Source of the DNA: Thermoplasmatota archaeon
GTDB taxonomy: Archaea; Thermoplasmatota; E2; DHVEG-1
DNA: 62,891 nucleotides
Assembly: GCA_030601705.1 (NCBI GenBank)
Contig: JAUWBM010000003.1
Span: forward strand, 1-62,891
Reading direction: 5' to 3'
A program made the translations under genes and the position numbers. Shown here in pieces: positions 21,929-62,886 of this stretch (position 1 is its first letter; each line of letters opens with the position of its first letter). The notes below the pieces were generated by a model. The model was not told the DNA's origin and did no database searches. It saw only the letters and a list, made by a program, of their open reading frames with translations.

Positions 21929-22001
21929 GCCGCCGTAGCTTAGCTGGTGGAGCGGCTGATTCGTAATCAGCAGGTCAGGGGTTCAAATCCCTTCGGCGGC
22001 T
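21929..22001 (+). tRNA. tRNA-Thr (anticodon CGT), integration target
   Basis: GCCGCCG...GCTGA-TT-CGT-AA-TCAGC...GGTTCAAATCC...CGGCGGC-T cloverleaf. Confidence 0.95.
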
Positions 22002-22002
22002 T
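21986..22002 (+). repeat. attL core (tRNA-Thr 3' end)
   Basis: AATCCCTTCGGCGGCTT, identical at 61316-61332. Confidence 0.92.
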
Positions 22003-32756: not shown

Positions 32757-32788
32757 GATATGAAATTGTATTTTGGAGGAGGAAAAGG
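32757..32788 (+). repeat. Start-associated module
   Basis: GATATGAAATTGTATTTTGGAGGAGGAAAAGG followed by TTG. Confidence 0.75.
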
Positions 32789-35678: not shown

Positions 35679-35710
35679 GAAATGAAATTGTAGATTTGGA
35701 GGATGTGAAA
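35679..35710 (+). repeat. Start-associated module
   Basis: GAAATGAAATTGTAGATTTGGAGGATGTGAAA followed by ATG. Confidence 0.75.
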
Positions 35711-35938
35711 ATGTCTGATTATAATATTGAAATCAACAAGTTGGTGAAGGAGACGGAAAATGGCATTATTAAAACAGAGATTTGGGCTGAAATAACTGAC
35801 AAGGAAACTAATGAAACCATGAAAAATCGAATATGGTGGGAAGATGATGATGGTTATCATGATGGAGTACCAGATTTGCCAGTAGAGTTGCGGGGAGCTG
35901 TGGATAACGCTTGGATTGAAAAGAGTAGGAAATGGTAG
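35711..35938 (+). CDS. Hypothetical acidic protein
   Basis: ATG directly after the module RBS. Confidence 0.6.
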   Translation: MSDYNIEINKLVKETENGIIKTEIWAEITDKETNETMKNRIWWEDDDGYHDGVPDLPVELRGAVDNAWIEKSRKW

Positions 35939-37095: not shown

Positions 37096-38124
37096 GTGCC
37101 AGAAGATGCTAGAATATGGAAAATTCTTGATAACGACGAATTAAGAGAAATTAAAAAAGCAAAGTTAAATTTAGAAGAACGCATTGAAAATTGGCTTGAA
37201 AAAGACATTTCTTTGTTATCAAACGAGTTGTTGGTAATCGGTAGACAAGTGGAGACGGGTTTTGGTGGAATAATTGACATTCTATGTTTGGATAGTAAAG
37301 GCGATTCTGTTATCGTTGAGTTGAAGCGTGATAAGACTCCTCGTGAAATAACCGCCCAGACGATTGATTATGCTTCTTGGGTGAAGGATTTGTCTAATGA
37401 TAAGATAACAGAGATTGCTGATAAATATCTTGGTGATAAAGGACCTTTAGAAGAGGCTTTCAAGAACAAATTTGGTATAGAGTTACCAGAAACACTCAAC
37501 GAAGAACATAGTATGCTTATTGTGGGTTCAGAGATTGACGCCAGTTCTGAGAGGATTATTAACTATCTTTCTGATACATATGGTGTTGGTATTAATGCAG
37601 CTACATTTCAGTACTTCCGTGATGGTGAAAAGGAATTTTTAGCACGAGTGTTTTTGATTGAACCAAGTGAGGTAGAATATAAAACAAAGATTAGAGCATC
37701 TTCTAAAAGAAAGCCCAATTTAAATTACGAAGAGTTAGAGGAAATTGCAGAGAACAATGAAGTTGGAGAACTATATAACCAACTTGTAGATGGACTATCG
37801 GTAATCTTTGATGGGCGTGGAACTACTCGGAGTTCGATTAGTTTTACTGGAAAAATAAATGAAAGCCGACTCGCAATTTTTAATTTGATTCCAAAGGACA
37901 GTAATCCAGATACAGGGCTGAAATTTCAAGTATACATAAAAAGATTATCCAGATATCTTAACACAAAAGAAGATAACCTGATACGATTGTTACCTGTAAA
38001 ACGAGAAGAATGGATATATATAAGAGGATATTCAGAAGAATGGTCTGGTTATGCTGGATTTTTTGGAAATCTAGATGAAGTGGATAAATTCTTGGCAGGA
38101 TTGAAGGAATTTAAGAAAAAATGA
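37096..38124 (+). CDS. NucS-like (DUF91) PD-(D/E)xK nuclease domain protein
   Basis: IGRQV.T..G.IDILC.D...VIVELKR...QTIDYA. Confidence 0.78.
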   Translation: MPEDARIWKILDNDELREIKKAKLNLEERIENWLEKDISLLSNELLVIGRQVETGFGGIIDILCLDSKGDSVIVELKRDKTPREITAQTIDYASWVKDLSNDKITEIADKYLGDKGPLEEAFKNKFGIELPETLNEEHSMLIVGSEIDASSERIINYLSDTYGVGINAATFQYFRDGEKEFLARVFLIEPSEVEYKTKIRASSKRKPNLNYEELEEIAENNEVGELYNQLVDGLSVIFDGRGTTRSSISFTGKINESRLAIFNLIPKDSNPDTGLKFQVYIKRLSRYLNTKEDNLIRLLPVKREEWIYIRGYSEEWSGYAGFFGNLDEVDKFLAGLKEFKKK

Positions 38125-39200
38125 ATGAAAAACTCATAATACTTGGAATAGTCGTTCTGCTCTTGTCCGTTGGGTTGAGTGGATGTGTTCAACGAAAAAC
38201 TCCTGTATCAGAAGAAAAAGTTGACTTTAAAATAGAAGATGTTTGGGTTACTGAAGTATCCAGTGAGAGTAAATTAATTATAGTGTCAATAACAATAGAG
38301 AATAAAGAAGATAAATGGTTGGCAGTTTCCACACCAATTATGGGTGGTTTAATTGATAATGAGGGAAATAATTACTTTGCAGAAATGTTTGTAGAAATCA
38401 ACGGTTCAACACATTATGTAGGAGAATTAACATTAATTGATGAAGATGAAATCTTTGATTTGGTTGCCGATATATCTCCAAATTCAACGATATTGAAAAA
38501 GATTGTTTTTACTATACCAATAAAAAGAGAGCCAAAGAGATTAAAACTGGATTATGGATTCCGAGAAAACAAAGAAACATTGGTAAAAGATTGGTTTGAT
38601 TTGCCTGAAATGGAACTCCCATCAAGCCAAGAAAAATCTATGGATGATGATTTTTGGGATGATGATTATTGGGATAACTTTTGGAATGATGTAGAAACTC
38701 CAGTGTCAGAAGGCAAAGTTAATTTCAGTGTAGAGGATGTAATAGTTACTAGTGAATTAGAAGTAACTACTCAAGAATGGGTGAATTTGTCTCTGGTTAA
38801 TGTAACTAAGACAGAATTACTTAATGATTCTGAGGTCGTAATCATATCAGTGTTAATTGAGAACAAAGAGGATAGAATATTAGAGGTTGCGGAATTTTGG
38901 AATGAAGGTCTGACAGATGATAAAGGAAATAGATACTATCATAAGATGTTTATAGAAGTCAACGACACGACATATTCCATAGAGGATATAACGTCAATCG
39001 AAGAGGAGGAGGTTTTCGGTGGTGACATTTTAGGTATGAGTGAAGATTTCTCACCAAATTCCACAAATTTACGGAAGATAGTATACGAGATACCGCCAGA
39101 GAGAGTGCCTGAAAAGCTAATACTTACTTATGGATTTAAAGACCACGAATTAACAGATGTAGAAGATTGGTTCGATATCGAACTTCAACTTCCATCTTGA
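38121..39200 (+). CDS. Lipoprotein with an internally duplicated DUF4352-like domain
   Basis: VGLSGC lipobox. Repeats TPVSEEKVDF/TPVSEGKVNF and KDWFDL/EDWFDI. Confidence 0.7.
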   Translation: MNEKLIILGIVVLLLSVGLSGCVQRKTPVSEEKVDFKIEDVWVTEVSSESKLIIVSITIENKEDKWLAVSTPIMGGLIDNEGNNYFAEMFVEINGSTHYVGELTLIDEDEIFDLVADISPNSTILKKIVFTIPIKREPKRLKLDYGFRENKETLVKDWFDLPEMELPSSQEKSMDDDFWDDDYWDNFWNDVETPVSEGKVNFSVEDVIVTSELEVTTQEWVNLSLVNVTKTELLNDSEVVIISVLIENKEDRILEVAEFWNEGLTDDKGNRYYHKMFIEVNDTTYSIEDITSIEEEEVFGGDILGMSEDFSPNSTNLRKIVYEIPPERVPEKLILTYGFKDHELTDVEDWFDIELQLPS

Positions 39201-45733: not shown

Positions 45734-45937
45734 ATGGTCGAAAAGAAGGAAGACCCATGTCCTTTAAAAGTACCTGAGTGGGTACAATATCTTACGTTTG
45801 AACAAAACCGAGAAAGAGCCGATTATAATAATACAGAAGTATCTATCCTTACAAAAACAATCATAATGCTTGCGATAATAAATGCAATTCTGATTATTCT
45901 TACAATTCTTAATACACTCGATTTTGCGCTCTGTTGA
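45734..45937 (+). CDS. Small TM protein
   Basis: Preceded by TTTTGGAGGAGG. Its 3' end runs into repeat A. Confidence 0.55.
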   Translation: MVEKKEDPCPLKVPEWVQYLTFEQNRERADYNNTEVSILTKTIIMLAIINAILIILTILNTLDFALC

Positions 45938-45987
45938 ATTGGCGGGTGTCGGGTGGTGACTAACTCGGGTGGTGAAAACGGGAGGTA
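45920..45987 (+). repeat. Repeat A, left copy (inverted partner at 50732-50800)
   Basis: CTGTTGAAT.GCGGGTGTCGGGTGGTGACT...TCGGGTGGTGAA..CGGGAGGTA. Confidence 0.9.
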
Positions 45988-45990
45988 TAA

Positions 45991-46251
45991 TTATACTTTC
46001 AATCCAAATTCTTCTTTTGATGCTGTCTTATATTTTTCATATATTCTTTTTGATTGCTTAGAACAATGACTTTTTCCCTTTCCTGTATCAAGAAACATAA
46101 AATTAAGAATCCGCATGTTGAAACTTCCAACGCTTATACCATTTTCCTTATTCAATCTATTTGCTCTTTCTCTTTGTTCTTCTTTATTTAAAAATTTATA
46201 TGAATAAAATACAATTTTATCTTCTTCCTTAGTCCACCTATGTTCATTCAT
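45991..46251 (-). CDS. Small basic protein (Myb/HTH-like WTKEED)
   Basis: TTATATAA about 24 bp upstream suggests a leaderless transcript. Confidence 0.6.
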   Translation of the reverse strand: MNEHRWTKEEDKIVFYSYKFLNKEEQRERANRLNKENGISVGSFNMRILNFMFLDTGKGKSHCSKQSKRIYEKYKTASKEEFGLKV

Positions 46252-46294
46252 TTAAGGTTCTTAATTTGTTATTATTATATAATTCTGTTGTTTG

Positions 46295-46432
46295 TTCGGG
46301 TTGCAAAATCTTATAAAAAACCATACTATTGTTTTTTGCAGTCTCCTCTTAACATGTATTAGTCACCAACTTATATAGTGGAAAACTTTGACAACTGCGG
46401 TTTTCTATCAAAAAAGAGGAGAGCAAAAAATA
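46295..46432 (+). repeat. Repeat B, left copy (inverted partner at 49042-49177)
   Basis: The 76-bp core 46341-46416 matches the reverse complement of 49056-49131 with 2 mismatches. Confidence 0.92.
46341..46423 (+). ncRNA. Candidate ~85-nt structured RNA (copy 1)
   Basis: TTATAAAA at 46311-46318, closing stem TCTCCTCTT/AAGAGGAGA, inner stem GAAAACT/GGTTTTC. Confidence 0.4.
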
Positions 46433-46517
46433 TTGATTTTTTCCGCAGATTATAATTATATCAAGCATTATTAGATACTGATGGGTAACGTGAATATAGA
46501 TGAGGAGTTAAAAAAGA

Positions 46518-46721
46518 GTGGAAAAGGTGAATAAATTTATGAAAATATACAAAAGGTCTTTAGCAGAACATCATGAGAGTGGAGTTGCTATAGTGAGATA
46601 CCCTGATGGTAAAGAGATAATATTGCCAGGAAATATAGCCAAAATGATGGCAGAGAATCATCCTGAACAATATTGCATTACACAGAGAAGACCTTCAAAA
46701 AGACCTTGGCGTCATAGATAA
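46518..46721 (+). CDS. Hypothetical protein
   Basis: GAGGAG RBS upstream. Confidence 0.45.
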   Translation: MEKVNKFMKIYKRSLAEHHESGVAIVRYPDGKEIILPGNIAKMMAENHPEQYCITQRRPSKRPWRHR

Positions 46722-46763
46722 AATCAGGTTTAAGTGGAAAAAACTCAGAAAATAAATCTGGCA

Positions 46764-47312
46764 TTACTTTTTTATATGATGCAAAAATGCCTGAACTGTT
46801 TTTCCAGGAGTTACATCAAATTTCCATTCATCTTCTTTTGTCATCCTGTATTGCTGATAAAGGGAGTATACATCTCTTCTCCAATTCCTTATTGAGTAAT
46901 ATTCATCGTCAAAAACCATCAACAGGTGATGGAAATCATATGGCGGTTTCAACCTGTCAATTTTTTCTAAATCTTCTTTAATTCTTCTTTTATATTTTTC
47001 TTTTAATCCATTATAATTATTGTGGAGTCTAATGGTCTTTACTTCTAACCAGTGTTCTTTATTATTATTGGACCACCACAAATCACATTTTTCAAAATTT
47101 CGCCCTGTTTTTATGTGATATGAATGTTCCCCTTCAGCTTTTTCAACTTCATTTTTTTCTTTCAATTCCAAAAGTTTTGCCAGCATTTCTGTGTTAATCC
47201 AATGTTCAATTCTTTTTCCCCTTTTGACCCCTCTACAATAAACTTCTTTGAGAATTTCCTTTCTTGGTTCTATCGATGATATTAAGTATCTAACAACTTC
47301 TTTTGGTTCCAT
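46764..47312 (-). CDS. PD-(D/E)xK nuclease-like protein
   Basis: E.W...CDLW...WLEVK motif. Confidence 0.55.
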   Translation of the reverse strand: MEPKEVVRYLISSIEPRKEILKEVYCRGVKRGKRIEHWINTEMLAKLLELKEKNEVEKAEGEHSYHIKTGRNFEKCDLWWSNNNKEHWLEVKTIRLHNNYNGLKEKYKRRIKEDLEKIDRLKPPYDFHHLLMVFDDEYYSIRNWRRDVYSLYQQYRMTKEDEWKFDVTPGKTVQAFLHHIKK

Positions 47313-47373
47313 ATATATCTCCCCCCTTGCAGAATACAATCAGAATTTTTAAATCTTGGGGTTTTAAAATATA

Positions 47374-47409
47374 GACTTTTTACACAAGTGGGACTTTTTA
47401 CACAAAGCC
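47374..47409 (+). repeat. Repeat C, tandem GACTTTTTACACAA x2
   Basis: 18-bp period. Homologous array at 48704-48759. Confidence 0.8.
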
Positions 47410-47559
47410 GAAAAAGGGAACTTTGCCCTAAAATTACCTGAAAACATCGAATTTTAGGTCAGAAGCGGTAATTTAAAGTCAATACCAAAAATTATTTAAA
47501 TAATTTGTTTATATGTGACATGGTAACAATTTACTTATATGTTGTAAGGTGATAAAAAA

Positions 47560-47934
47560 ATGATTGGTAAAAAACTAATAATTATACTCTTTTCAATAAT
47601 AATAATTTTAACTACTTTTTCACAGATTGTCATATCTTCTACTGACAAAGAGAAAAATGATAAAAAAATGATTACTGGATATGCCTATTCTGGATTTGTA
47701 ATAGGCAGAATAAAGGATTTAAAACGATTTTATAGTTTAGCACATATGACTTGTCAAGCAGTAAATGTATATTGGTCTATTACATGGTTACCCCCTCATT
47801 ATCCTCATACCGAGTCTAGATGGATTGATTCAGGTGAAATAGAAATATATAGACCAGTTTCGGGAATTGTATTACGAAACTTTATTTTCGTACATATTGA
47901 TTGGGTAGTTTCTAATAAAATACCCAACCCATGA
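47560..47934 (+). CDS. Secreted hypothetical protein
   Basis: Signal peptide and a GGTGA RBS. Confidence 0.6.
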   Translation: MIGKKLIIILFSIIIILTTFSQIVISSTDKEKNDKKMITGYAYSGFVIGRIKDLKRFYSLAHMTCQAVNVYWSITWLPPHYPHTESRWIDSGEIEIYRPVSGIVLRNFIFVHIDWVVSNKIPNP

Positions 47935-48186
47935 ACAATGGCGGGTATGAAAAGTTATCATGAGACAACCACCATTTATTGCTGAAGAAATATCACTAAA
48001 AACAATGAGGATAAAACCAAGATTCGGAATTAGAATCATGAAATCTGGTCGTTTAGTCATATATTGTTTTAACGATGGAGAAAAAGTTTCAATATCTTGT
48101 TGAATGTACCAATATGCTATATTGTGTTTGTCAAGCCATTCTTTGAATTCATGTTCTGCTTCTCTTTCTTTTTCCTTCATATTCAT
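47872..48186 (-). pseudogene. Truncated PD-(D/E)xK nuclease
   Basis: AE..F...KRPDFMIL..GFILI, then sequence diverges before the expected D/E-x-K. Tail overlaps a convergent gene. Confidence 0.45.
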
Positions 48187-48292
48187 TTCAATTCATTGAG
48201 ACTGTAGATATTGTTGAAATAAAACTCTTTTGTATGAATAAGTATTAGAAAAATCTAAAAACTTTTGACCTTTTTAGATAAAAATAAATTGG

Positions 48293-48628
48293 GTGACTAT
48301 GACTAAAAAGGCAACTTTGCGATATTTACAGCCAGAATATGGAAGATTCATCCTCTGTACGTGGAGGATATCAGGCATCCAATGGAAAATAGTTGAAGAA
48401 ATACGAAACTGGACTGACGGAACGGTTCATTTGGAAGGAAATCCAAGAATATGGTTTAAACGAAGAAATCCAGATGAATACCCAGCAGAATACGAATTAA
48501 ATATTAGGGGGCGAGGACATGACGATAGATGTACTTGGTGTAAATCATTTAGAACAGCACTTACAACTAAGATGAAAGAAGAATTGTGTTATTCCATTGA
48601 GGAAATCGGTGGCTGTGATTTTGACTAA
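48293..48628 (+). CDS. Hypothetical protein
   Basis: 111-aa ORF in an otherwise empty space. Confidence 0.55.
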   Translation: MTMTKKATLRYLQPEYGRFILCTWRISGIQWKIVEEIRNWTDGTVHLEGNPRIWFKRRNPDEYPAEYELNIRGRGHDDRCTWCKSFRTALTTKMKEELCYSIEEIGGCDFD

Positions 48629-48703
48629 AACAGATATAAGATTTTAAGGGTATTATTCTTATCAACCCAAAAATTCTGGCAATGCAACAAAGCTTCATAA
48701 ATC

Positions 48704-48759
48704 GACTTTTTACACAGAATTCTTACTTTATACACAACTGGCACTTAATACACAAAGCC
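48704..48759 (+). repeat. Repeat C, tandem ACTT(T/A)(T/A)TACACA x3
   Basis: Units at 48704, 48724 and 48742. Ends in CACAAAGCC, as the first array does. Confidence 0.75.
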
Positions 48760-48942
48760 TATTTTTCTTTTGAGGAAGAATCGTGTTCCTACATTTTCAC
48801 CTGCTGAAGTCAGAGGTATGACTTCGATTAGTTCCCAACCATCTTTACCTAAGTCATTTAGAATTTTTTTCGCTTCCCCTACATCTTTATCGCTCATAAT
48901 CTTTTGTCTAATACTAATTATCGTATATTCCCAATTTACCAT
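48745..48942 (-). CDS. DUF4177-like small protein
   Basis: WEY...LNDLGKDGWEL...FLKR pattern. Confidence 0.75.
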   Translation of the reverse strand: MVNWEYTIISIRQKIMSDKDVGEAKKILNDLGKDGWELIEVIPLTSAGENVGTRFFLKRKIGFVY

Positions 48943-49041
48943 GTATATTGCAAGAATTAAAATGTTTAATAGCTTTTTGAAAAATGTTATTTAAAGTCAA
49001 ACTCATTAATTTTAGGGCAAAGCCATAGCTGATTATTGTCG

Positions 49042-49177
49042 TATTTTGGTCTCCCCTTTTTTGATAGAAAACTGCAGTTGTCAAAGTTTTCCACTGTATA
49101 AGTTGGTGACTAATACATGTTAAGAGGAGACCAGAAAACACATATAATGGTTTGTTTAAATGATTTTGCAACCCGAA
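49042..49177 (-). repeat. Repeat B, right copy (contains candidate ncRNA copy 2 at ~49048-49132)
   Basis: Reverse complement of 46295-46432. Confidence 0.92.
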
Positions 49178-49255
49178 TAGTCAACACCATACTATATAGA
49201 ACCTGTATTTAAGAAATATTCTAACATCCTTCATATTACTAATATCATAATTTCT

Positions 49256-50374
49256 TTAGTATGCTCTTTTTGACTTCATTATATATATAGTGATGCCGAT
49301 AAGGGTAACTATACTGACCCCTACCAAGATTATTAATATAAATGGATTTAAATCTAAGAAGAAATAAGAAATAAACGGTCCTCCCATAATTATTGTAAGT
49401 AATATAAAAGCTCTTAATACTGCGTTTACTACCGATTCCTCCAATGTACTTCTACTTATATCCTCTGATATTTGCTGAATGTCTTTCATTCCAATTTTTG
49501 TCTTCTCATGGACTTTAAAATGAACCCAATTTTTTTCAAAATTAAGTTTTTGTAATCGATAAATTTCGTGTTCAATTTCAGTTTTAAGCTCAAGGTATAC
49601 ACTATTATTCATATTATCTTTATTTTTTTCTAAAAATGTAATTTTATTCTCAACTGAGGTAATATTATTTTTTGGGTTCGCTATTGCTAGTACAGGTATT
49701 TCTTCATATATTCTTTCTCTATATCGAACCGATTCATTTTGGTATCCAAAAAGAAAAATTAGAAATAGGATAATAAAAACCAAGATTGAATAGCTTTCAA
49801 TATTGCTGATTTCTTTCGAAATATCATATACTTTCAAGAAAATAATATTTCCTGTTACATTTTGATATATGCTACCTCCAGTTAGTATGAGAAAAAAAAT
49901 AAAAAGATAAAGAAAGAGAAAAAGGCGGGCTTCCTTAGTTTCATAAAATCGCTTTTCTAGACCTTGTAGCTTTTCTCTTTTTTCCCAAAATTTATCCACG
50001 GATGACTTAAGATAGGATAAATAAGATATATTGAAATTTTGAGTAGTTGCATCAATATCAATTTTTTCCTTTTTATTCTTATGTGTAAATTTCTGCAATA
50101 CCTCTTTTACAGAGCTGTCTGTATAATGTTTTAAAAATTTGTTTGGTCTTACAATAATCTTCAGTATGTAGGGTTGAATCGCACTCATTGCAATAGCAAT
50201 TATCCCTGCCAAAAAAAGTAAACTTGTAGCAGTTATTAAATCTTTAAGCTGATTTATTAAAAATAATCCAAGTAGTAAAATTATATATGCGGGAGTAAAA
50301 TTTCCAATAAGTTCCTTTAATCCAACAGAAAAACCATTCTTATTTTCATCCAATATTGATTCCTCTTTCTCCAC
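49256..50374 (-). CDS. Multi-TM hypothetical membrane protein
   Basis: About six TM segments, very AT-rich. Confidence 0.65.
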   Translation of the reverse strand: MEKEESILDENKNGFSVGLKELIGNFTPAYIILLLGLFLINQLKDLITATSLLFLAGIIAIAMSAIQPYILKIIVRPNKFLKHYTDSSVKEVLQKFTHKNKKEKIDIDATTQNFNISYLSYLKSSVDKFWEKREKLQGLEKRFYETKEARLFLFLYLFIFFLILTGGSIYQNVTGNIIFLKVYDISKEISNIESYSILVFIILFLIFLFGYQNESVRYRERIYEEIPVLAIANPKNNITSVENKITFLEKNKDNMNNSVYLELKTEIEHEIYRLQKLNFEKNWVHFKVHEKTKIGMKDIQQISEDISRSTLEESVVNAVLRAFILLTIIMGGPFISYFFLDLNPFILIILVGVSIVTLIGITIYIMKSKRAY

Positions 50375-50513
50375 TAATTTAACAGGAGATTCCTATTTAA
50401 ACATTGGTTATAAGGATTCTGTTGAATATTGGTGTGTTGAAAATGGCGTGGTATTTGTTTTCAAGCCGAACAATCAACAATTTAAATAATATACAATTCT
50501 ATTAAGAAAAAAT

Positions 50514-50729
50514 ATGGTAAAGTGTTATAATTGTGGAAAAACCGATGCTGACGAAATTTTTCGTAAACCTGCTGGTGATTATATTTGCTATCCATGCCTT
50601 AAAAAATTCTTATCTGCATTAGAAAACGCCAATCCAGATTCTTTTAACTGTGAAAAAGAAATACATCAATTAATTTGTAAAGAGCAGGTTGAGAGATGTA
50701 TTGATGTTGTGTGTGCAGGACGTATTTGA
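50514..50729 (+). CDS. Small C4 Zn-finger protein
   Basis: CYNC...ICYPC. TTTAAATA about 25 bp upstream. Confidence 0.6.
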   Translation: MVKCYNCGKTDADEIFRKPAGDYICYPCLKKFLSALENANPDSFNCEKEIHQLICKEQVERCIDVVCAGRI

Positions 50730-50731
50730 TT

Positions 50732-50800
50732 TACCTCCCGCTATTCACCACCCGAACCAGTCACCACCCGACACCCGCAGATTCAACAGTGCAGAAAATC
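50732..50800 (-). repeat. Repeat A, right copy
   Basis: Reverse complement of 45920-45987. Confidence 0.9.
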
Positions 50801-53934: not shown

Positions 53935-54105
53935 TTATTTTTCAGGTTTTACAATAATTATTATTTCTCCTTTTCCTGCTTTCAAAGTCCAATCAAGTTT
54001 ATCCCCTTCCTTTAGGTTAAATTGATGTACAATACCTGCAGGAACTGTTGTGCGAAGAGACTTGGTTTTGGTAGAGGCTTTAGCTACGGTTGTTTTAAAT
54101 CCCAT
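53935..54105 (-). CDS. AbrB/MazE/SpoVT-like DNA-binding protein
   Basis: SLRTTVP..IV..FNLKEGDKL.W. Confidence 0.75.
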   Translation of the reverse strand: MGFKTTVAKASTKTKSLRTTVPAGIVHQFNLKEGDKLDWTLKAGKGEIIIIVKPEK

Positions 54106-54148
54106 AGTAATCAAACTAGAATAAGTCATTTGCTATATATAATACTAT

Positions 54149-54243
54149 CTACCTAATTAAATACTTTTTATGCTGTATCTTCTTCTACCTAAAAATTTAA
54201 ATACTATGAAGACCAATATACATATAGGTAGCAAATTAGGTAG
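54149..54243. promoter_or_regulatory. Operator-like array of four CTACCTA/TAGGTAG sites between divergent genes
   Basis: Sites at 54149, 54185, 54225 and 54237. The outer pair forms a perfect 10-bp inverted repeat. Confidence 0.45.
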
Positions 54244-54360
54244 CTAACCACAAATAAAAATTGGAATGTGAAAAAATGAAACACAATAAAAAATCCAACG
54301 CAAGGCTGATGACAAACAAAAGGAGAATGCAACCCATAAGAAAAACGTTGGAGGGAAAAT

Positions 54361-55452
54361 ATGACATCTGTTAAGTTAGGAATGGATGGTAAGACTACGA
54401 TAATTAACATTTGCATTCAAGAGGAAGAGATTTATCGTTTTTTACAGGGTGTTGAGGAAGAAAAAAGGGCTGAACGGCTGGTGAGTGCATTAAGAATAGG
54501 TATCCTCGGTCTGAAACAGATGGGCATTGGAGAAAATGTGGATTATGTTGAAAAAGAGTTCAACATGATGTTGTCCAAATTTGAAAAAATGTTTAATCCA
54601 GCTATAGAGTGTCATCTGGGTAAATTATCTAATCTGCTCACAGAGTATTTCGACAAAGATGGTAAAATAGAGAGCATTTTTGACCCCATGACTGAAAATA
54701 CCCCTCTCGGTAAATTACGAAGAGAACTCCTTGGAGAGATTAACAAGATTAGGGATATGCTTGTAAAAAAGGATGCTAAGGAGGAAGTTATCAATTCTAC
54801 ACCATTAAAAGGATATGAATTTGAAGATACATGTGAAGAGATTCTCAGCGAGATTGTCAGCAATCATATAGGTGACGAGCTAGAAAGAAAAACCAACGAA
54901 GTAGGTGAAATAACTGGATGCATGGCAGGTGACTTCGTAATATCACTGAAAGATATGCTTAGCAAAAAAATTGTTTTTGAAATAAAGGATGTTGAGAATA
55001 TTTCCCAACCAATGATAATAGAAACCATGGAAAGAGCCATGAGCAACCGTGGAGCATCATATGGGATTTTTGTCGTAAAATACAAAGAGGGAATCCCAAG
55101 AAAGATTGGGATTTTCAATGAATTTAGAGAAAACATTGCAGTGATAGCAATGGGGAGCAAGGAGGAAGAAACGTTTTTTCCAGAGCTTTTGCATGTTGCA
55201 TATCAATGGGCAAGATTAAAACTGAACGCAGAAACGACCATGCAACAAAAATCTGTAAAGATATTAGATGAAGGCATCAAACAGATATCTGAGAAATTGG
55301 AAGTTTTCGCTCAAATCAAAAGACAGTGCAGTAATGTTGACAAATCTATTGCTCAGATTAGGGAACATTCTGATGATTTGAAGAATGACATAGAAGAGCA
55401 TATAAGACGAATCCAAAAGGCATTATTGAATGGGGATGAAGATGATAGATAA
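54361..55452 (+). CDS. Coiled-coil protein with an RmuC/DUF2130-like PD-(D/E)xK domain
   Basis: KGYEFE...GDFVI...VFEIK flanked by coiled coils. Confidence 0.6.
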   Translation: MTSVKLGMDGKTTIINICIQEEEIYRFLQGVEEEKRAERLVSALRIGILGLKQMGIGENVDYVEKEFNMMLSKFEKMFNPAIECHLGKLSNLLTEYFDKDGKIESIFDPMTENTPLGKLRRELLGEINKIRDMLVKKDAKEEVINSTPLKGYEFEDTCEEILSEIVSNHIGDELERKTNEVGEITGCMAGDFVISLKDMLSKKIVFEIKDVENISQPMIIETMERAMSNRGASYGIFVVKYKEGIPRKIGIFNEFRENIAVIAMGSKEEETFFPELLHVAYQWARLKLNAETTMQQKSVKILDEGIKQISEKLEVFAQIKRQCSNVDKSIAQIREHSDDLKNDIEEHIRRIQKALLNGDEDDR

Positions 55453-55933
55453 TAAATGGTTCTGCGAGCCTAATGAACAAAGAGAGTCCTGGTGTTTTCT
55501 TTTTTTGCAAATGAATGACCATTGCGTCATTTGTAGGTGGGAAGTCGGCTACGGAAATCCAACAATGTTGGTTCGTAAGGTTACAAACCGTAAATCACGG
55601 GAGAGAGAAATTATCAAGGAATTGCTGCGAGAACTATATTACTGTAGGAAAGAAAGTATTACGCTCATCACGTACGGATATGATGTTCTTTCAATGCTCA
55701 GAACACGCATTATTCTCCTCGACATCGAAGATACAAGTCTCCATGGAGTAAAACACATCTCCATAGAGAAACTCTTGGAAGAATATTTTCTGCTTGATGT
55801 AATCAAGTCATCTACTATGCTGGAGTTAGCTAAGAAAATGAATATCAGACAGGATGAGTCGAACAAAGTCCAATTGCTTTGGCATATTTTTCTGAGAATA
55901 GGACCAATGCTTCCAACTGGGGTAATATCATGA
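55430..55933 (+). CDS. Hypothetical protein
   Basis: Overlaps both neighbours in an operon. Confidence 0.55.
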   Translation: MGMKMIDNKWFCEPNEQRESWCFLFLQMNDHCVICRWEVGYGNPTMLVRKVTNRKSREREIIKELLRELYYCRKESITLITYGYDVLSMLRTRIILLDIEDTSLHGVKHISIEKLLEEYFLLDVIKSSTMLELAKKMNIRQDESNKVQLLWHIFLRIGPMLPTGVIS

Positions 55934-56412
55934 GAGACAACCTTGAAAGAGTAACCATCGTCCTAACGAAGGAGCAGCATCAACGGTTCAAGGAATACTC
56001 TAAAAGATACCACGGTAGCCTCAGCCAGTTCCTACGCATGGCTGGTGAGAATGAGGCTGATGAAAACAATGGCTCTGATGTGCTCAACCTTCGCCCTATC
56101 ATCAAGAAACTGGAAATGATAGGAAGCATCGTTCAACAGATGGATGAAAGGCTAAAGAGAACCGAAAGTGGAACCAACTACGTTGTTGACAAGCTCGGTA
56201 GCAAAATAGAGAAAGTAGCTGAGGACATTGCAGAGATTCTTCTCCATAAAGGACATCTAAGTATTCCTGAAATGGGGAACTATCTACCATATACTCAGGA
56301 GGAAATTATATCAGGAGTTGAAAAACTAGAGGGCAAATTTGCAATAATAAGAATCAAGCAGTTGACTGCTCCATCAAAGTGGAAGATTAGAGGCGATGGA
56401 AATGCAAACTAA
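55930..56412 (+). CDS. RHH-like, coiled-coil and wHTH-like protein
   Basis: RVTIVL...SLSQFLR. Architecture parallels 58354-58824. Confidence 0.55.
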   Translation: MRDNLERVTIVLTKEQHQRFKEYSKRYHGSLSQFLRMAGENEADENNGSDVLNLRPIIKKLEMIGSIVQQMDERLKRTESGTNYVVDKLGSKIEKVAEDIAEILLHKGHLSIPEMGNYLPYTQEEIISGVEKLEGKFAIIRIKQLTAPSKWKIRGDGNAN

Positions 56413-57319
56413 AAAAACGGCAGACCAGCTAATCAAAGAACATCTAAAGGACTGCGAGGCAAGGCTATCGCCACATACTGTGAGGAACCATAGAGTATGC
56501 CTGAAAGCCTTCACAAAATTCCTTGGCAAGAAAGCGATAACAGATGCGACGAAGAGTGACGTAAGAAGATTTTTGAACGATATGACACAGAGAGGTAGAG
56601 CCAAATCTACACTCATCGGCAAATTCTTCATAATATGCTCCTTTTTCAGATACGTTGAAGTGTATCAGGGTATATCTATGCCCTGTTTGGATGATATAGA
56701 TGTTAATGATTATACCAGAGGAACTTGGGAGGGGCAGAAGAGAGAAGCACTCACTAAGGGCGAAATAAGAGCCCTCATTGAAGCTCCAGATAATTTAAGA
56801 GATACTCTCTTAATCGCATTCCTGTATTTTGGTGGTTTCAGAGTTAACGAAGTCGCATTATTGAAAATTGAAAATGTAGACATAGAGAATAGAATCATTG
56901 GAGTAATAGGGAAAGGAAACAAACCAAGAAGGGTTCCATATTCCTCTAAACTAGACAGAGCGATTCATTTCTGGTTGCATAAAGAGAGAAGGAGCTACGT
57001 CAATTCTAACAGCCCCTATTTCTTCCCTTCTAAGCATGGAGAACACCTTAATCCAAAATCAATCAGCAACATGGTTCACAAGAATGCTGTAAAAGCAGGG
57101 ATACAAAAGGTGATAGGGAGAAAAGCTGATGGGATAAAAATATACAGAGTTCATCCTCATATTCTCCGTCACAGCTATGCGACCCATGCAGCAGACGATG
57201 AAATACCGATAACTCTCATTCAAAAGATGATGGGACATAGTCGTATAAGCACTACTATTGGATATATGGGAGAAACGAATGGTTTCAAATCATATTATGA
57301 AAAATTTAAAGGGGTATGA
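56396..57319 (+). CDS. XerA/XerC-like tyrosine recombinase
   Basis: SAM-like N-terminal domain, then GFRVNE, GKGNK, HILRH, MGH and TIGY (complete catalytic set). Confidence 0.9.
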   Translation: MEMQTKKTADQLIKEHLKDCEARLSPHTVRNHRVCLKAFTKFLGKKAITDATKSDVRRFLNDMTQRGRAKSTLIGKFFIICSFFRYVEVYQGISMPCLDDIDVNDYTRGTWEGQKREALTKGEIRALIEAPDNLRDTLLIAFLYFGGFRVNEVALLKIENVDIENRIIGVIGKGNKPRRVPYSSKLDRAIHFWLHKERRSYVNSNSPYFFPSKHGEHLNPKSISNMVHKNAVKAGIQKVIGRKADGIKIYRVHPHILRHSYATHAADDEIPITLIQKMMGHSRISTTIGYMGETNGFKSYYEKFKGV

Positions 57320-57348
57320 AATGCCCCTCGAAAAATTTTGAGACCACA

Positions 57349-58140
57349 TCAAGAATTAAGATATCGTCTTAACCATTCTTCTTCGTCCTCAGGTACTTTT
57401 CTAAACAGCAATTTCTTTGCCAATTCAGTTTGGTAAAATACTCTCCTAGGATTACAATCGAACAACCTGCGACTGCTTTTTCCATATAGTTTTTCCATTG
57501 CCTTTTGTGCCAAAACTCCTGATTTAGCAATATATTTTTCTACAGTTCTCATATCTTCCCACCCGCCAAAAACCTGCAAAGCTTTTGAGGGGAGTCCGTC
57601 CCATGCAAGTTTGGTGGCGGCAGTTGCCCGAAGAGCATGAGGGTAGACATCTATTCCTGCTACTCTCCCGAGGTTTTTAATTCGAAGATTAACGTTCTTT
57701 GTAGTATATGGACATTTCGTATACTTTGACATTACTTCTTTCAAAACCCACTCGATTTCTTGGCTAAATCCAAAAGGAATGATTCTGGCACCGGCTTCGC
57801 TCTTTGGTTGCCAATATTCCTTCGATACTTCTTCCTTTGTGATATCCTTCAATACTTCTTCCTTTGTGACGTGTTTGCGTTTTTTTTTATTTTCAAATAG
57901 TTGTACACAATAGCTACAGGCACATGGTTCATAGGGAGGTATTACTATGATTTTTTTCTTAAAATCGACCCAGCGTTCTCGCATATGTGCTATTTCACCA
58001 CATCTTAACCCAAGTACGCCCATCACCAAAACTAGAAACATGTCCACTAACGGATTATTAGTCAACTCGCAGGCTTTCACCAATCGATTAAAATCTTCTT
58101 CACTAAGAGCATCATCCTTGGAATGCCTACCTTTCCTCAT
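57349..58140 (-). CDS. Catalytic-domain-only tyrosine recombinase with a CxCxxC insert
   Basis: GLRCGE, PKS, HALRA, GGW and EKY motifs, with CACSYC. Confidence 0.85.
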   Translation of the reverse strand: MRKGRHSKDDALSEEDFNRLVKACELTNNPLVDMFLVLVMGVLGLRCGEIAHMRERWVDFKKKIIVIPPYEPCACSYCVQLFENKKKRKHVTKEEVLKDITKEEVSKEYWQPKSEAGARIIPFGFSQEIEWVLKEVMSKYTKCPYTTKNVNLRIKNLGRVAGIDVYPHALRATAATKLAWDGLPSKALQVFGGWEDMRTVEKYIAKSGVLAQKAMEKLYGKSSRRLFDCNPRRVFYQTELAKKLLFRKVPEDEEEWLRRYLNS

Positions 58141-58367
58141 TCTACCCCTCCCAATTTATTTTGTTCCTTAGAATTTTTTGGTCGACCCAAGTCTCCTTTA
58201 TATGTGCTATTTCGCTGGCTCTCAATCCAGGGACTGCACCCCCCCATTATTGCTAATACGAGGTACTTATTTGCAATCGAGTTATCAATCTGTTCGCATG
58301 CTTTCATCAATTGCCTAAATTCTTCCTCGCTAAGGATGTTATCCCTGACAAATTTATTTCTCTTCAT
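58137..58367 (-). pseudogene. Truncated paralog of the 57349-58140 recombinase N-terminus
   Basis: DNILSEEEFRQLMKACE..N..YLVLAIMG versus DDALSEEDFNRLVKACE..N..FLVLVMG. Similarity stops before the catalytic Arg. Confidence 0.65.
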
Positions 58368-58824
58368 TTTTTTCCTCCTTCTGCATCTTATCCCCTCTTC
58401 GAGTTCCAATCAACTTCAAATCGATAAGCAAAGTGAGTGCTCCACTGATTATTTTTCGGTTATAGTTGAACATACCGACAAATTCAGAAAAAGTTTTATT
58501 TTCCCCCGATGGTAATAATTTCAAGATTTCTCTTGCTGCCTTAACAATTTCAGAATTATTTTCCTTATCAGCTAAGAGACGCATTGATAAAATTTCCACT
58601 TCTTCATGAGTTAACTCAAGGAGCTTATAGAGACCACTAATTGCGTCCTGTATTGGCTCCATTATTTTATCAGGTTTATTCTCCCTTTTAATAGCCGCCT
58701 CAACAGTATTTCGTACCATCGAAGAGAAACTACCATAACCCTTTGCAGTCTTGTATTTTTTCCACCTCTTGAATTGCTTTTCATCGTTAAGAACTAGGGA
58801 AACCCGAACGCTACCTTCTTTCAA
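58354..58824 (-). CDS. RHH-like, coiled-coil and wHTH-like protein
   Basis: RVSLVL...SFSSMVR and IISGAL, paralleling 55930-56412. Confidence 0.6.
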   Translation of the reverse strand: MKEGSVRVSLVLNDEKQFKRWKKYKTAKGYGSFSSMVRNTVEAAIKRENKPDKIMEPIQDAISGLYKLLELTHEEVEILSMRLLADKENNSEIVKAAREILKLLPSGENKTFSEFVGMFNYNRKIISGALTLLIDLKLIGTRRGDKMQKEEKNEEK

Positions 58825-59240
58825 TTGCTATCCCCCTCTCTAAAAACAAAACATGAAAGCAGGAGCAAAAGTATGTAAGAAATGCATAACATACGTCCCA
58901 CTTCTGTCACAAGTGCCACGGATGTTGCATACTCATTACATACTTCCTTCATAGATTTACGAAGCATCGTTTTTCCCTCTTTTTTGGCAAGCCAGCTTGC
59001 GTTCTTTTTTTTCAATTTCATTTAACAGAAACATAATTGCTTCTGTCCTTTGCATACCTGTTTTTGCTTTGAAATCATCAAAATTTTTAAAATCTAAAAA
59101 ATTCATAAGTCCTCTTCAAATAAAAATTTCCGAATTTTCTGTTCTCGCTTTTCTTCAATAAGCATATTAACAATAAAGATGCTTACTGGAATATATAGTA
59201 TGGTTTCCTTATTTGGGTAACTTCCAGATGGTAAATTGTT

Positions 59241-59990
59241 ATGACGTTATCTGACAAAAAAAGTAAGAGAAAGAAAATAATAAAACAAAAAAATATCTCT
59301 ATGGTGCTCAGTCAGCCATGGGCAAAAAAGATGCTTTTGCCCTATGAATTTGGAGAAGAGGGGAAAAAAGTTCTCAGCTTTACAGAGTTCAAGGATATAT
59401 TGAAAACGAGCAATAAAGTCGTCAGTAATCACTTGAAAGAATTGTGTGATATCGGATTTTTACGACATGTTAAAAAGGGGGAAGGATATGTTTATTCGAA
59501 ACAATTTCCATTATGTTATATCTTTAAATATGAGGATTTGAGACTGATTCATGACTCTCCAGTAGAATCGATATATTCAATAACAATGCCATACAAAGAA
59601 ACGAAAGAAGGAATGGTGAGTGTAAGGCATCTTTCTATATACGGACTCAAAAAATCCAATCCAGGTCTGGATGATATTATTGTACCCCTGCTCAAGAAAT
59701 TGCACCAATATATCAATTCCATGTATGACGAAGAACTTCAAATCATCGTTAATGATGAATGCAGAAAAATCAAGAATGAACATGTGGTAGAACTCATCAG
59801 AAAATGGCAATCAAAACTTGTTAAAAACAAACTGTTACATCCATTACGGATTAGAGACGAAATCGAACCAGTGAAAATTCAGTTTGATGTACCTGAAGAA
59901 CACAGAGAAGAATTCAAAGAAATCATAGAAAGACTATGGAGCAAATTTTATAAAGAATGCCCACCAATCGGCATCGTGCTTCGATTTTAG
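59241..59990 (+). CDS. Winged-HTH regulator (HxlR/ArsR-like N-terminus)
   Basis: SFTEF..IL..SNKVVSNHLKEL...GFL. Confidence 0.6.
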   Translation: MTLSDKKSKRKKIIKQKNISMVLSQPWAKKMLLPYEFGEEGKKVLSFTEFKDILKTSNKVVSNHLKELCDIGFLRHVKKGEGYVYSKQFPLCYIFKYEDLRLIHDSPVESIYSITMPYKETKEGMVSVRHLSIYGLKKSNPGLDDIIVPLLKKLHQYINSMYDEELQIIVNDECRKIKNEHVVELIRKWQSKLVKNKLLHPLRIRDEIEPVKIQFDVPEEHREEFKEIIERLWSKFYKECPPIGIVLRF

Positions 59991-60014
59991 GGGCTTCATA
60001 CATGAATATAACGA

Positions 60015-61250
60015 TTAATTTCTCATTTTTTCTAATTCTTGTATCTTTTCCTCCATCTCTTGTAGCTTTTTTAATAACATGTTTCCCATAGACCTTTCAA
60101 ATTCAGGAGTATTAAATATATTCATACCAAGTTTGATAGCTTGCTCCTTATATTGGTCATATTCCATAACGCTTTGCTCATCTAAACCCAGAGAACAGCC
60201 ACTACAGAACTTTGCAGCAGGGTCGTTCTTAATACCGCATCGTGGACATTTAATAGCTTTAAATTTGCTTTCTTTTTTCTCTTCATCCACTAGTCCATGT
60301 AGTTCGAGGATTGCTCTGTCTGTATCCCTTCCGCTTAAATGCACGTAAGTAGCAGCTTCCTGGCTCCCCTGAACCCAGCCCATATACTGGCATAGGTGTG
60401 CTTCGGTAAGTTTCTTTGCAAGTTCTGTAGCTCTACTGTGTCTAAAATGATGGGGATTGAGAGGCTTATCTATACCTGATTTTACCCCTAATTCTTTTAA
60501 CAACCGATTTACATGTCTATATTGTAGTTCTTCCCCCCTGTTTTTTGCCCATAGTCCGCAAAATAAGAAGGCGTCTTTATTTTTCCTTTTTGGATGTTCC
60601 AATAGCCAGTTACTTATGGACGGAGCAGATGCAATAACTCTTATTTTTCTTGCTCCAGTCTTACCAAAGAGGTTTATCAATGCCCCATATTTATCGAATT
60701 CAATGTCTTTAATCTTTAATTCTAACAATTCTCCAATCCGTGCTCCAGATTCATAGAGCAGTAAAGCAAGGCATCTATCCCTTAAATTGTTGGCGTAATC
60801 TGCTAATTTCTTGATGTCTTCTACGGTAAACAATTCGCTAGGTAATTTTTTTCTGGATTTTCTGACTTTAATTACAATCCATTTCACCTCATCAGGGTAC
60901 TGTCTTCTATCTAATTCTTGCCCTTCTTCCTCTCTTAACCATTTATAGAAGCGTTTAATGACGACCATATAATCATGTTTTGTCCACTCTTTAAAATCAG
61001 AGTTGTTGATTATGCTACATACCCTCCTGATGTCCTGTTTATTTGCCTTTGAAAAATCTTTTTCAAGCATCTGGGATAGCTTCTTGAGAGTATAGATATA
61101 TTTTATATGTCTGTGGTGTGTTAGCCCCTCAGCCACCAATTGCTCTATAAAGGAAAATATGTGTTCTTTGTTTGCTGGTAATATATCGGACTCGCTCAGT
61201 TTTTCTTTTGCAGTTAGAAATCTATTTTTCAAATTTTTCAAATTTACCAT
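60015..61250 (-). CDS. int: tRNA-targeting tyrosine integrase with a C-terminal Zn ribbon
   Basis: SGARIGE, GKTG, HHFRH, MGW, TYVHL and CPRC...CSGC motifs. Starts 65 bp from attR. Confidence 0.92.
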   Translation of the reverse strand: MVNLKNLKNRFLTAKEKLSESDILPANKEHIFSFIEQLVAEGLTHHRHIKYIYTLKKLSQMLEKDFSKANKQDIRRVCSIINNSDFKEWTKHDYMVVIKRFYKWLREEEGQELDRRQYPDEVKWIVIKVRKSRKKLPSELFTVEDIKKLADYANNLRDRCLALLLYESGARIGELLELKIKDIEFDKYGALINLFGKTGARKIRVIASAPSISNWLLEHPKRKNKDAFLFCGLWAKNRGEELQYRHVNRLLKELGVKSGIDKPLNPHHFRHSRATELAKKLTEAHLCQYMGWVQGSQEAATYVHLSGRDTDRAILELHGLVDEEKKESKFKAIKCPRCGIKNDPAAKFCSGCSLGLDEQSVMEYDQYKEQAIKLGMNIFNTPEFERSMGNMLLKKLQEMEEKIQELEKMRN

Positions 61251-61315
61251 GGTTTATCGGGCGGGATAAGAGGTTACTAGTATATAATATTTGGGGATTT
61301 GTATATCAGTGCCTG

Positions 61316-61332
61316 AATCCCTTCGGCGGCTT
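61316..61332 (+). repeat. attR core
   Basis: AATCCCTTCGGCGGCTT, identical to 21986-22002. Confidence 0.92.
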
Positions 61333-61415
61333 ACCAGATCATTTTTCTTCTGTTAAAACCAATTAGTGTGCTGATTTCATCTCTACAGTCCTTTGCATGG
61401 TTTGGGTTTTGTGGG

Positions 61416-61453
61416 AAGAAAAAAAGGGATTAGAAAAAGAAAAGGAGGGGGAG
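61416..61453 (-). terminator. Oligo(U)-rich terminator after tbp
   Basis: Pyrimidine and T tracts on the minus strand just after the stop. Confidence 0.45.
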
Positions 61454-61457
61454 TTTA

Positions 61458-62006
61458 CTAGTGTATAAGCCCTAGCGATGTTAGTTCTTTTGATAATTTA
61501 TCTACTGCAAGAGATACATCTGATATCTTTTTCGCACCAGTACATACTATTTTACCAGAGCCAAATAGCAGCATAGCCACCTTAGGTTCTCTTATCCTAT
61601 AGACCAGTCCTGGGAACTGCTCAGGTTCATATTCCACGTTTTCTAAACCAAGAGCCATAGCAACTTCATTAAGATTAAGCTCTCCACCTAGATCAGATAT
61701 TGCTACAATATTTTGTATTACTATTTCAGGATCCTTATGAACATCTACACCTAATTTTTTCAGCTTTTCTGCGATTATAGCTATAGTGGCTCTCACATCT
61801 TCGATATTTTTAGCACCGGTACAGTTGGCTTTTCCACTTCTAAAAAGAAGTGTCGCAGTCTTTGGATGTGCCAATCTGTAAACTAATCCGGGAAACTGTT
61901 CTGGTTCATATTCGGCTTCTTCTAGAGATTGTGCTATTACGTCTAAATCCAATTTTTCTGAAAAAGATGTAGATGCTACAATGTTTTCTACTTTTACTTC
62001 CGGCAT
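61458..62006 (-). CDS. tbp: TATA-box-binding protein (canonical)
   Basis: Two repeats of NIVA...YEPEQFPGLVYR...LF.SGK..CTGAK. Confidence 0.96.
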   Translation of the reverse strand: MPEVKVENIVASTSFSEKLDLDVIAQSLEEAEYEPEQFPGLVYRLAHPKTATLLFRSGKANCTGAKNIEDVRATIAIIAEKLKKLGVDVHKDPEIVIQNIVAISDLGGELNLNEVAMALGLENVEYEPEQFPGLVYRIREPKVAMLLFGSGKIVCTGAKKISDVSLAVDKLSKELTSLGLIH

Positions 62007-62655: not shown

Positions 62656-62851
62656 TGCTATACTAAACGTATAGATTAGTACTCCTAAAACGATATATCA
62701 GACAAGACGAGATTTGAATACACTTTTACCGATAATAAGTTATTATCCAACCCTGTTAACCTAAAATGTAAAATTAAACCAAAGATATTTTGAGGTTTCT
62801 ACCATAATATCTCAAAATACATCAAACTAATAGATTATTAAAACAATAGCA

Positions 62852-62886
62852 GTTATGAAATTGTAGTTTGAGGGAGGAGAAAAACT
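62852..62886 (+). repeat. Start-associated module outside the island
   Basis: GTTATGAAATTGTAGTTTGAGGGAGG followed by ATG at 62887. Confidence 0.7.

Follow-up and report, generated by a model that had tools for sequence, protein, structure and literature searches.

The right end of an integrative island in a Thermoplasmatota archaeon carries two convergent tyrosine recombinase genes, here called recA and recB, each accompanied by the gene of a small partner protein, rhhA and rhhB, respectively. The island lies on contig JAUWBM010000003.1 (assembly GCA_030601705.1), which was analysed at its full length of 62.9 kb (the window) and belongs to a genome of 2.84 Mb in 194 contigs (G000). We propose tentatively, with a probability of about 0.45, that recA and recB together make up a single conserved module for site-specific recombination, and that one family of archaeal integrative islands carries this module as part of its backbone. 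The proposal is based on four observations: the two enzymes strictly co-occur, their partners are paralogous, the genes are translationally coupled, and the module is linked to a diverged island integrase, Int.

Recombinases and their partner proteins

Three intact tyrosine recombinases had been read from the sequence before any database was searched, and the list of open reading frames (ORFs) and the Pfam and NCBIfam scans bear them out within 56396–61250 (Table 1). All three exceed the gathering cut-off of PF00589 (27.1 bits), with 115.4 bits for recA, 71.0 for recB and 89.3 for Int. The catalytic residues of recB (R46, K113, H168, R171, W194 and Y203) are invariant across 23 family members, and those of recA and Int are present as motifs read from the translations. 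All three enzymes score below the 220-bit cut-off of the NCBIfam XerA model NF040815 (recA 167.4, Int 131.6, recB 51.7), although archaeal XerA is the best NCBIfam match of recA. The tyrosine-recombinase domain has 43 matches across the 2.84-Mb genome, including seven Xer-like copies of 318–339 amino acids (four of them of about 322) on separate contigs, none of which reaches the XerA cut-off. The recA, recB, rhhA and rhhB genes are each single-copy in the genome.

The earlier description of recB as a catalytic-domain-only recombinase with a CxCxxC motif stands, as the protein carries C-A-C-S-Y-C and PF00589 spans its residues 12–206; a catalytic domain that begins at residue 12 leaves no space for a binding domain at the N-terminus. 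Among phage records recB had 20 matches, all in haloarchaeal viruses and 18 with at least 80% query cover, the best being Int1 of phiH and phiCh1. The alignment with phiCh1 Int1 takes in all 224 residues (34% identity, E 3e-49), Cys cluster included. The phage annotation of the Int1 gene reads 'invertible segment involved in tail fiber protein switching', and in phiCh1, according to two reports (PMC6210493, PMC4284463), the ends of two tail-fibre genes are exchanged by a centrally placed recombinase that has inverted repeats on either side. Relatives of this halovirus invertase occur, as recB demonstrates, in non-halophilic sediment archaea. The recB family in a large protein collection has 72 members of 199–300 amino acids, haloarchaeal chromosomes and plasmids being among their sources, and the subgroup with the 40-residue C-terminal tail is the one that co-occurs with rhhB. 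The structural model of recB (pLDDT 84) matches recombinase catalytic domains, with the XerA structure 5hxy closest and a TM-score of 0.72 to the catalytic domain of HP1 integrase.

The rhhA and rhhB proteins share 28% identity in a pairwise alignment (E 1e-4), and their families align over 140 columns with an hhalign probability of 99.1% (E 1.8e-18); as judged from these alignments, the two are paralogous families. The rhhA family comprises 37 proteins, none of which has a precomputed Pfam domain, and the rhhB family gave 30 matches among cluster representatives (E ≤ 0.001). Some rhhA relatives are encoded on long contigs, namely P0095 (90.9 kb), P0102 (45.8 kb), P0108 (24.0 kb), P0104 (14.6 kb), P0084 and P0086. 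No Pfam or NCBIfam match was found for either protein, and PHROGs gave none for rhhA, rhhB or the nearby p249. The AlphaFold model of rhhA (pLDDT 75) consists of an N-terminal two-helix unit (helices 14–26 and 31–44 after an extended N-terminus), a long helix 55–107 and a C-terminal winged helix, for which Foldseek returned Zalpha, MarR and ArsR domains at TM-scores of 0.86–0.88 and a root-mean-square deviation of about 1 Å, with an E-value of only 7e-3. The sequence-only reading had assigned both proteins a ribbon-helix-helix (RHH), coiled-coil and winged-helix build with parallel sequence patterns. The paralogy, the long helix and the winged helix stand, while the RHH part is the least secure: neither protein has a Pfam hit, so that this label rests on the sequence pattern and the model, and a monomer model cannot show strand pairing. 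A complex prediction for the recB and rhhB families scored 0.30 against a mark of 0.32 and is not counted for or against binding. Scanning IMG/VR viral contigs with the rhhA profile produced 63 pattern matches, none confirmed, and a match in genome G044 was rejected as an unrelated coiled-coil ORF among housekeeping genes.

A supply of specificity or directionality by the RHH–winged-helix partner had been suggested especially for the enzyme without an N-terminal domain. This emphasis is not supported, since the phage relatives of recB share the missing domain as a family trait and have no such partner; the absence of the domain does not in itself require one. The phiCh1 gene upstream of int1 shows no relation to the rhhB profile, and neither a second recombinase nor an rhh gene was found in two haloarchaeal plasmid contexts of recB relatives.

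The genes of the module and Int lie on both strands in three transcription units. The plus-strand operon runs p363, p167, rhhA, recA, and its successive genes overlap by 4–23 nt (p167 overlaps p363, and also rhhA by 4 nt; rhhA overlaps recA by 17 nt). The minus-strand operon consists of rhhB and recB with the relic of a recB paralogue between them, and rhhB overlaps the relic ORF. Two further parts of the sequence-only reading were thereby upheld, namely the mirror-image convergence of the operons across 29 bp and the overlap of each partner gene with the recombinase or recombinase-fragment gene that follows it.

Table 1. Coordinates of the module, the island borders and associated features (window positions unless a related locus is named)
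Feature	Position	Strand	Basis
tRNA-Thr(CGT) gene, island left border; attL core 21986–22002 at its 3′ end	21929..22002	+	ARAGORN, Rfam, core search, empty site in G057
Leader-motif (start-module) copies	25195–25234, 27703–27736, 28262–28301, 30590–30629, 32753–32786, 35672–35711, 62845–62884
AbrB/MazE-like small DNA-binding protein	53935..54129	-	Pfam PF04014, E 8e-7
Operator-like cluster of short inverted and direct motifs, divergent promoter region	54128..54246		function inferred
p363, 363 aa, coiled coil and putative PD-(D/E)xK nuclease (RmuC/DUF2130-like lead), first gene of plus-strand operon	54361..55452	+	Atlas lead
p167, RNase H-like/PolB-exonuclease-like fold, lead only	55430..55933	+	Atlas score 0.92
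rhhA, 160 aa, RHH-like/coiled-coil/winged-helix protein, recA partner	55930..56412	+	sequence pattern, model, family alignment
recA, 307 aa, Xer-like tyrosine recombinase with N-terminal SAM-like domains	56396..57319	+	PF00589, E 3e-33
recA–recB spacer, 29 bp, near-palindrome with T-runs on both strands	57320..57348		sequence
recB, 263 aa, catalytic-domain-only, phiCh1/phiH Int1 family, Cys cluster, 40-aa C-terminal tail	57349..58140	-	PF00589, E 1e-19
Frameshifted relic, first ~62 residues of a recB paralogue, directly after rhhB	58144..58409	-	two frames, 58242–58409 and 58144–58237
rhhB, 156 aa, rhhA paralogue, recB partner	58354..58824	-	pairwise and family alignment
77-nt imperfect palindrome upstream of rhhB, candidate operator or site	58869..58945		function inferred
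p249, putative winged-helix protein, variable position	59241..59990	+	weak ArsR-type match
Int, 411 aa, island integrase, C-terminal zinc-ribbon-like motif (weak match)	60015..61250	-	PF00589, E 3e-25
attR core, 17-nt copy of tRNA-Thr 3′ end, island right border	61316..61332	+	core search, empty-site comparison
DEDD genes before p167	G045 (L003) 4907–5449; L028 1–711; L022 3–467
Cas4-like genes before p167	L029 2227–2895; L026 1769–2437

Conservation of the module

Within the class, recB and rhhA are each found in two of 197 genomes, the present one and G045, which belongs to a different genus. The order in G045 is tRNA-Arg, rhhB, recB and, on the opposite strand, recA, rhhA, p166 and a DEDD exonuclease gene, so that all five genes of the block keep their relative order and direction, at 28–46% identity; no Int is present on the 7.6-kb contig. 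Metagenome contigs scanned with the rhhA profile contributed 12 loci. The p167 gene lies directly before rhhA in all 11 of these that cover the place, and in G045, and is itself preceded by p363 homologues in L019 and L027. In 7 of the 8 metagenome loci that are long enough recA follows rhhA; the exception (L030) is a truncated rhhA relic beside the host ndk gene. All five loci that extend past recA have a convergent recB, which is clear by tblastn and followed by rhhB in two of them (L020, L024) and appears in the other three as a short C-terminal likeness only, seen by eye. The ends of the two operons are 22–38 bp apart. The order of the window recurs in L020, where recA, recB and rhhB are followed by an unrelated 455-residue gene, an Int of 43% identity and host genes.

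A check proposed with the sequence-only reading was to look in other archaea for the pair of an RHH–winged-helix gene and a recombinase gene and for its co-occurrence with the repeats of the island. The pair does recur, whereas one of these repeats, the start-module motif described below, is present in none of the 30 related loci searched for it. The literature searched, with most subscription journals outside its coverage, held no description of this module, and the arrangement appears to be undescribed.

The gene before p167 is a nuclease in the loci compared, and it comes in three unrelated folds: RmuC-like (the window, L019, L027), DEDD (G045, L028, L022) and Cas4-like (L029, L026). In G045 two additional copies of the last 8 nt of tRNA-Arg(GCG) stand 21 and 20 nt downstream, just before rhhB (L003 1436–1549), and may be att remnants or binding sites; at least five such matches arose in 2 of 200 shuffles. 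No repeat of the tRNA-Arg end occurs further right to mark the other end of the G045 element, and the 12 genomes of its genus yielded no usable empty site, only the tRNA and repeats being matched. A repeat of about 150–350 nt adjoins the element (L003 6500–6850) and is present on many contigs, both in the sister genome G049 and in other genomes of the genus; it may be a small mobile element of the non-autonomous type.

Island borders and population contigs

The 17-nt att core has two matches in the window, one at each island border, against 0.03 expected, and no further copy, inside the island or elsewhere in the window, at up to three mismatches. In G057, a genome of the same genus, the tRNA-Thr gene directly adjoins the two TBP genes that here follow attR. 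Given this core pair and this empty site, the stretch 22.0–61.3 kb is an insertion that is explained by Int and the core. Int, the enzyme beside attR, accounts for the integration of the island, a role in which the sequence-only reading had already placed it.

Contigs of four sequencing runs were compared with the window; such contigs drop rare forms. Run X2, from another study, has six contig pieces over 54115–61650 that bridge attR into the host flank, and in run X4 one contig leaves the window at 53932, just left of the AbrB-like gene. As the X2 contigs bridge attR and X4 leaves at 53932, the region between these points, AbrB-like gene included, behaves like a backbone up to attR. The cargo at 44–54 kb has little or no cover in the four runs, which is no evidence that other strains lack it. 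Of the 18 joints in the four runs, none of the 15 listed changes strand, which proves nothing on inversion. The joints 53575->59001 and 45344->59007 were distrusted, with sides of 21 letters in a T-rich low-complexity stretch.

The population contigs also touch the relic between recB and rhhB. A truncated copy of recB had been noticed at this place, and it is a frameshifted N-terminal relic, 49–62% identical to recB. In run X2 one base is missing at 58239, exactly at the relic frameshift, which would join both frames; in run X19 two bases are missing at 58174, and one contig jumps from 58235 back to 58033.

Repeats considered as targets

The spacer between recA and recB is probably a two-way terminator. 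No spacer sequence is common to the window, L020, L024 and G045, nor is there a conserved dif-like site, and for this non-conservation among the four loci the spacer was rejected as such a site.

The start-module repeat is a leader-like motif ending in a ribosome-binding site and ATG. Besides the copies in Table 1, it is found on contigs C9, C27, C91, C122, C138, C140 and others. Its 18-nt core has 17 exact copies in the genome, 30 at up to one mismatch and 37 at up to two, on 11, 19 and 22 contigs, respectively. The copies lie 4–11 nt before start codons, mostly of small ORFs, many of which encode Cys-rich or membrane proteins; they often stand in arrays of two to four, and many share a further upstream stretch. 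A diverged 40-nt copy (68% alike) lies outside the island at 62845. The repeat could be a 5′ untranslated region element or a cassette boundary.

The cargo also contains two nested inverted repeats, one of 57 nt (45920–45976/50744–50800, 86% alike) and one of about 153 nt (46276–46428/49044–49198, 87–90%). The longer repeat has only these two copies in the genome, each pointing inward at a small ORF, and its fold has z = -1.9. In run X19, where 294–299 nt are skipped, the short repeat directly adjoins the long one.

Possible function and alternative explanations

The analysis shows which genes are present, how far they are conserved, their homologies and where the island ends; what the proteins bind, which substrate they act on and with what outcome belongs to the proposal. 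In the mechanism that we propose, each recombinase would be made together with its own RHH/coiled-coil/winged-helix protein. The partners may bind repeats in the flanking promoter regions, with the operator-like cluster at 54128–54246 and the 77-nt palindrome at 58869–58945 as the likely places, and there regulate their own operon and assist in positioning or orienting the recombinase on DNA, in the manner of Orf2 and Orf3 of the virus SNJ2. By this analogy it is plausible that rhhA and rhhB confer specificity or directionality. As recA and recB always occur together, they might work on the same DNA of the element, in a mixed complex or with opposing activities, and their likely job would be the rearrangement of that DNA (resolution or excision of a circular form, or inversion) rather than integration at tRNA-Thr. 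Since the only studied relative of recB is an invertase, it is reasonable in principle to think of an action on repeats within an element.

Several observations weigh against the backbone module. No recombination site was identified for the pair, the spacer is unconserved among the four loci, and the only exact direct repeat at the two borders of the module is 12 nt long and AT-rich, about what chance would give by a rough estimate. The phage relative of recB has no RHH–winged-helix neighbour, and the small proteins could be plain transcription regulators. The G+C content of the module (0.385–0.409) is above that of the cargo at 40–51 kb (0.265–0.329). The 7.6-kb contig of G045 carries the module beside tRNA-Arg without an Int, and contigs of run X3 have loose ends at 59005, where the module might border on the Int block. 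The last three points bring in the main rival, according to which the unit of about 5 kb (~54.0–59.0 kb) is an autonomous nested mobile element that integrates by means of two recombinases and is unrelated to the life cycle of the island. The arrangement in G045 fits such an element, with the last 8 nt of the tRNA present twice more within 50 nt, and so do the X3 end at 59005 taken with contig starts at 54008 in runs X3 and X19, the raised G+C, and the three nuclease types before p167, which would vary as element cargo does. Nevertheless, the unit has the same position and orientation beside the 43% identical Int in L020 and is contiguous with Int in run X2, it has no significant flanking direct repeats in the window, the element in G045 could not be traced to a right end, and the joints at 59001–59007 have 21-letter sides in low-complexity sequence. 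We consider this explanation unlikely.

The pair, or recB alone, could also be an invertase that flips a segment of the island, for which the nested inverted repeats at 45920–50800 would be candidate targets. The membership of recB in the Int1 family argues for it, as do the likeness of the cargo repeats, the longer of which is confined to two genome copies, and a weak match of the recB N-terminus to the NCBIfam tyrosine-type DNA invertase family (E 3.5e-5, far under the cut-off). The repeats, however, are 7–11 kb from recB, while Int1 sits inside its invertible segment; no inverted repeats of the phiCh1 kind flank recB, whose neighbours are recA and rhhB; no strand change was seen among the 15 joints listed; and the related loci are too short to show repeats travelling with the module. 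On balance, inversion of a cargo segment appears quite improbable. A still smaller probability falls to a defence or addiction-type system, or to small proteins that are only repressors of two independent recombinases. The module does sit in a defence island, and the nuclease before p167 is exchanged among three folds, a pattern common in defence systems, but p363 and p167, the module proteins scanned, have no PADLOC match, both recombinases keep all catalytic residues, and each recombinase is strictly paired with an overlapping partner gene, which points to a recombination output. As to the sequence-only reading, it had made the pair the engine of a cassette system acting on the start-module repeats, with the RHH–winged-helix proteins as specificity factors. 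The repeat does precede several cargo genes, and the content left of about 53.9 kb does differ, as X4 leaves at 53932 and L020, L024 and G045 have other neighbours there. The reading is unsupported all the same, because the repeat is spread over the whole genome (37 copies in 22 contigs, with a diverged one outside the island) whereas recA, recB, rhhA and rhhB have no second copy. Moreover, the motif looks like a leader with a ribosome-binding site just before start codons, it is absent from the 30 related loci searched, and recA scores 80.7 bits against the integron integrase model TIGR02249 with its cut-off of 265. Cassette shuffling at start modules is thus highly improbable.

Neighbouring genes and island cargo

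All three window copies of one 8-nt motif fall inside the operator-like cluster in front of p363. The first plus-strand gene had been read as RmuC-like, and this remains a lead only: p363 has no Pfam hit, DUF2130 or Mrr_cat appears in a minority of members among its Atlas neighbours, and the D...E-x-K motif was read by eye. In p167 the N-terminal acidic motif of the G045 exonuclease was not seen by eye. Neither p363 nor p167 matched PADLOC or PHROGs. The position of p249 is held in L020 and L024 by unrelated proteins of 455 and at least 422 amino acids, respectively.

The cargo at 22.0–53.9 kb is a dense defence island. Pfam and PADLOC identified a dGTPase (E 6.5e-119), a GajB-like UvrD helicase, PDC-S11 and a Mko/Hhe-like helicase, the last accompanied by a DUF559 nuclease; also encoded are NucS-like and Mrr-like nucleases, a TIR-like protein, and the HaeII restriction enzyme with its cytosine methylase and Vsr. 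Three cargo genes (24325–24403, 27883–27961, 38114–38192) share a 5′ stretch of 79 nt, 72–73% alike, which codes for a signal peptide ending in a lipobox-like sequence, and two of the three proteins carry DUF4352. An Rfam scan of the window detected two tRNAs and nothing else.

Significance

What the window and its relatives present is a rare conserved module of two different recombinases with two paralogous dedicated partners, located beside an ordinary integrase at a conserved island end. According to a 2021 review (PMC8371274), all characterised archaeal integrases work without directionality factors, and SNJ2 Orf2 and Orf3 are the one case of modulating helpers. If rhhA and rhhB are cofactors, they would be the second case in which archaeal recombinases have helper proteins, and one with a tighter coupling, and the convergent layout of two enzymes would be a compact natural switch or resolution device. 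Should the unit prove to be only a nested small element, it would still represent an undescribed family of two-recombinase elements. There is also a slim chance of a new kind of multi-recombinase system, in which the Xer-like and the catalytic-only Int1-like enzyme, each loaded by its RHH/coiled-coil/winged-helix adaptor and both helped by the exchangeable nuclease, form a mixed complex that exchanges or captures cargo where backbone and cargo join near 53.9 kb; if true, tRNA-borne islands would be an integron- or GInt-like platform for archaeal defence genes. The four proteins and three DNA regions are offered as candidates for bench study.

Comparison with known systems

The likeness to Xer recombinases lies in the SAM-like N-terminal domain and catalytic domain of recA and in the closeness of the recB model to XerA 5hxy, and XerC/XerD exemplify the principle of two different recombinases acting on one site. 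The recA protein differs from XerA in its score (167 bits, below 220), in belonging to a rare mobile module and in having no conserved dif-like site in the adjoining spacer. FimB and FimE of Escherichia coli are two short tyrosine recombinases encoded side by side, which act on one invertible switch with differing directionality. Their genes are in tandem, next to that switch; no switch was found for the present module, for which the comparison is limited to the weak, below-cut-off match to the invertase family.

Int1 (ORF35) of phiCh1/phiH resembles recB in its catalytic-domain-only build and in a Cys cluster that comes after the first Arg and before the Lys. According to the reports on it (PMC6210493, PMC4284463), Int1 is located within its invertible segment and has on either side one of two convergent target genes that carry repeats. 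In contrast, recB lies between recA and rhhB and has a 40-residue C-terminal tail, and the upstream gene of the phage is unrelated to rhhB. The bacterial GInt islands (ginABCD) also combine variable cargo with an end set of three recombinase-like genes and a small DNA-binding protein; according to the report on them (PMC5385486), the gin genes form one tandem operon, all four are required for integration and excision, and GInts are stated as not found in archaea. The present module, compared with them by description only, differs in having a classical Int with a tRNA att core and in the convergence of the other two enzymes.

The finding is rated as belonging with tyrosine recombinases that have dedicated helper proteins on integrative islands, and Orf2 and Orf3 of SNJ2, a Natrinema pleolipovirus, appear by analogy to be the nearest functional counterparts of rhhA and rhhB. 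In the orf3-orf2-int operon of SNJ2 the accessory genes overlap each other and the recombinase gene, Orf2 is a coiled coil and Orf3 a MarR-like winged helix, and together they raise integration, and inversion up to 180-fold, as stated in PMC5861418 and PMC8371274. The likeness, which holds at the level of architecture only, consists in an accessory coiled coil and winged helix and in the overlap with the recombinase gene. In rhhA and rhhB these features would be fused in one protein with an RHH-like N-terminus, and the archaeal module has two such partner–enzyme pairs that face each other.

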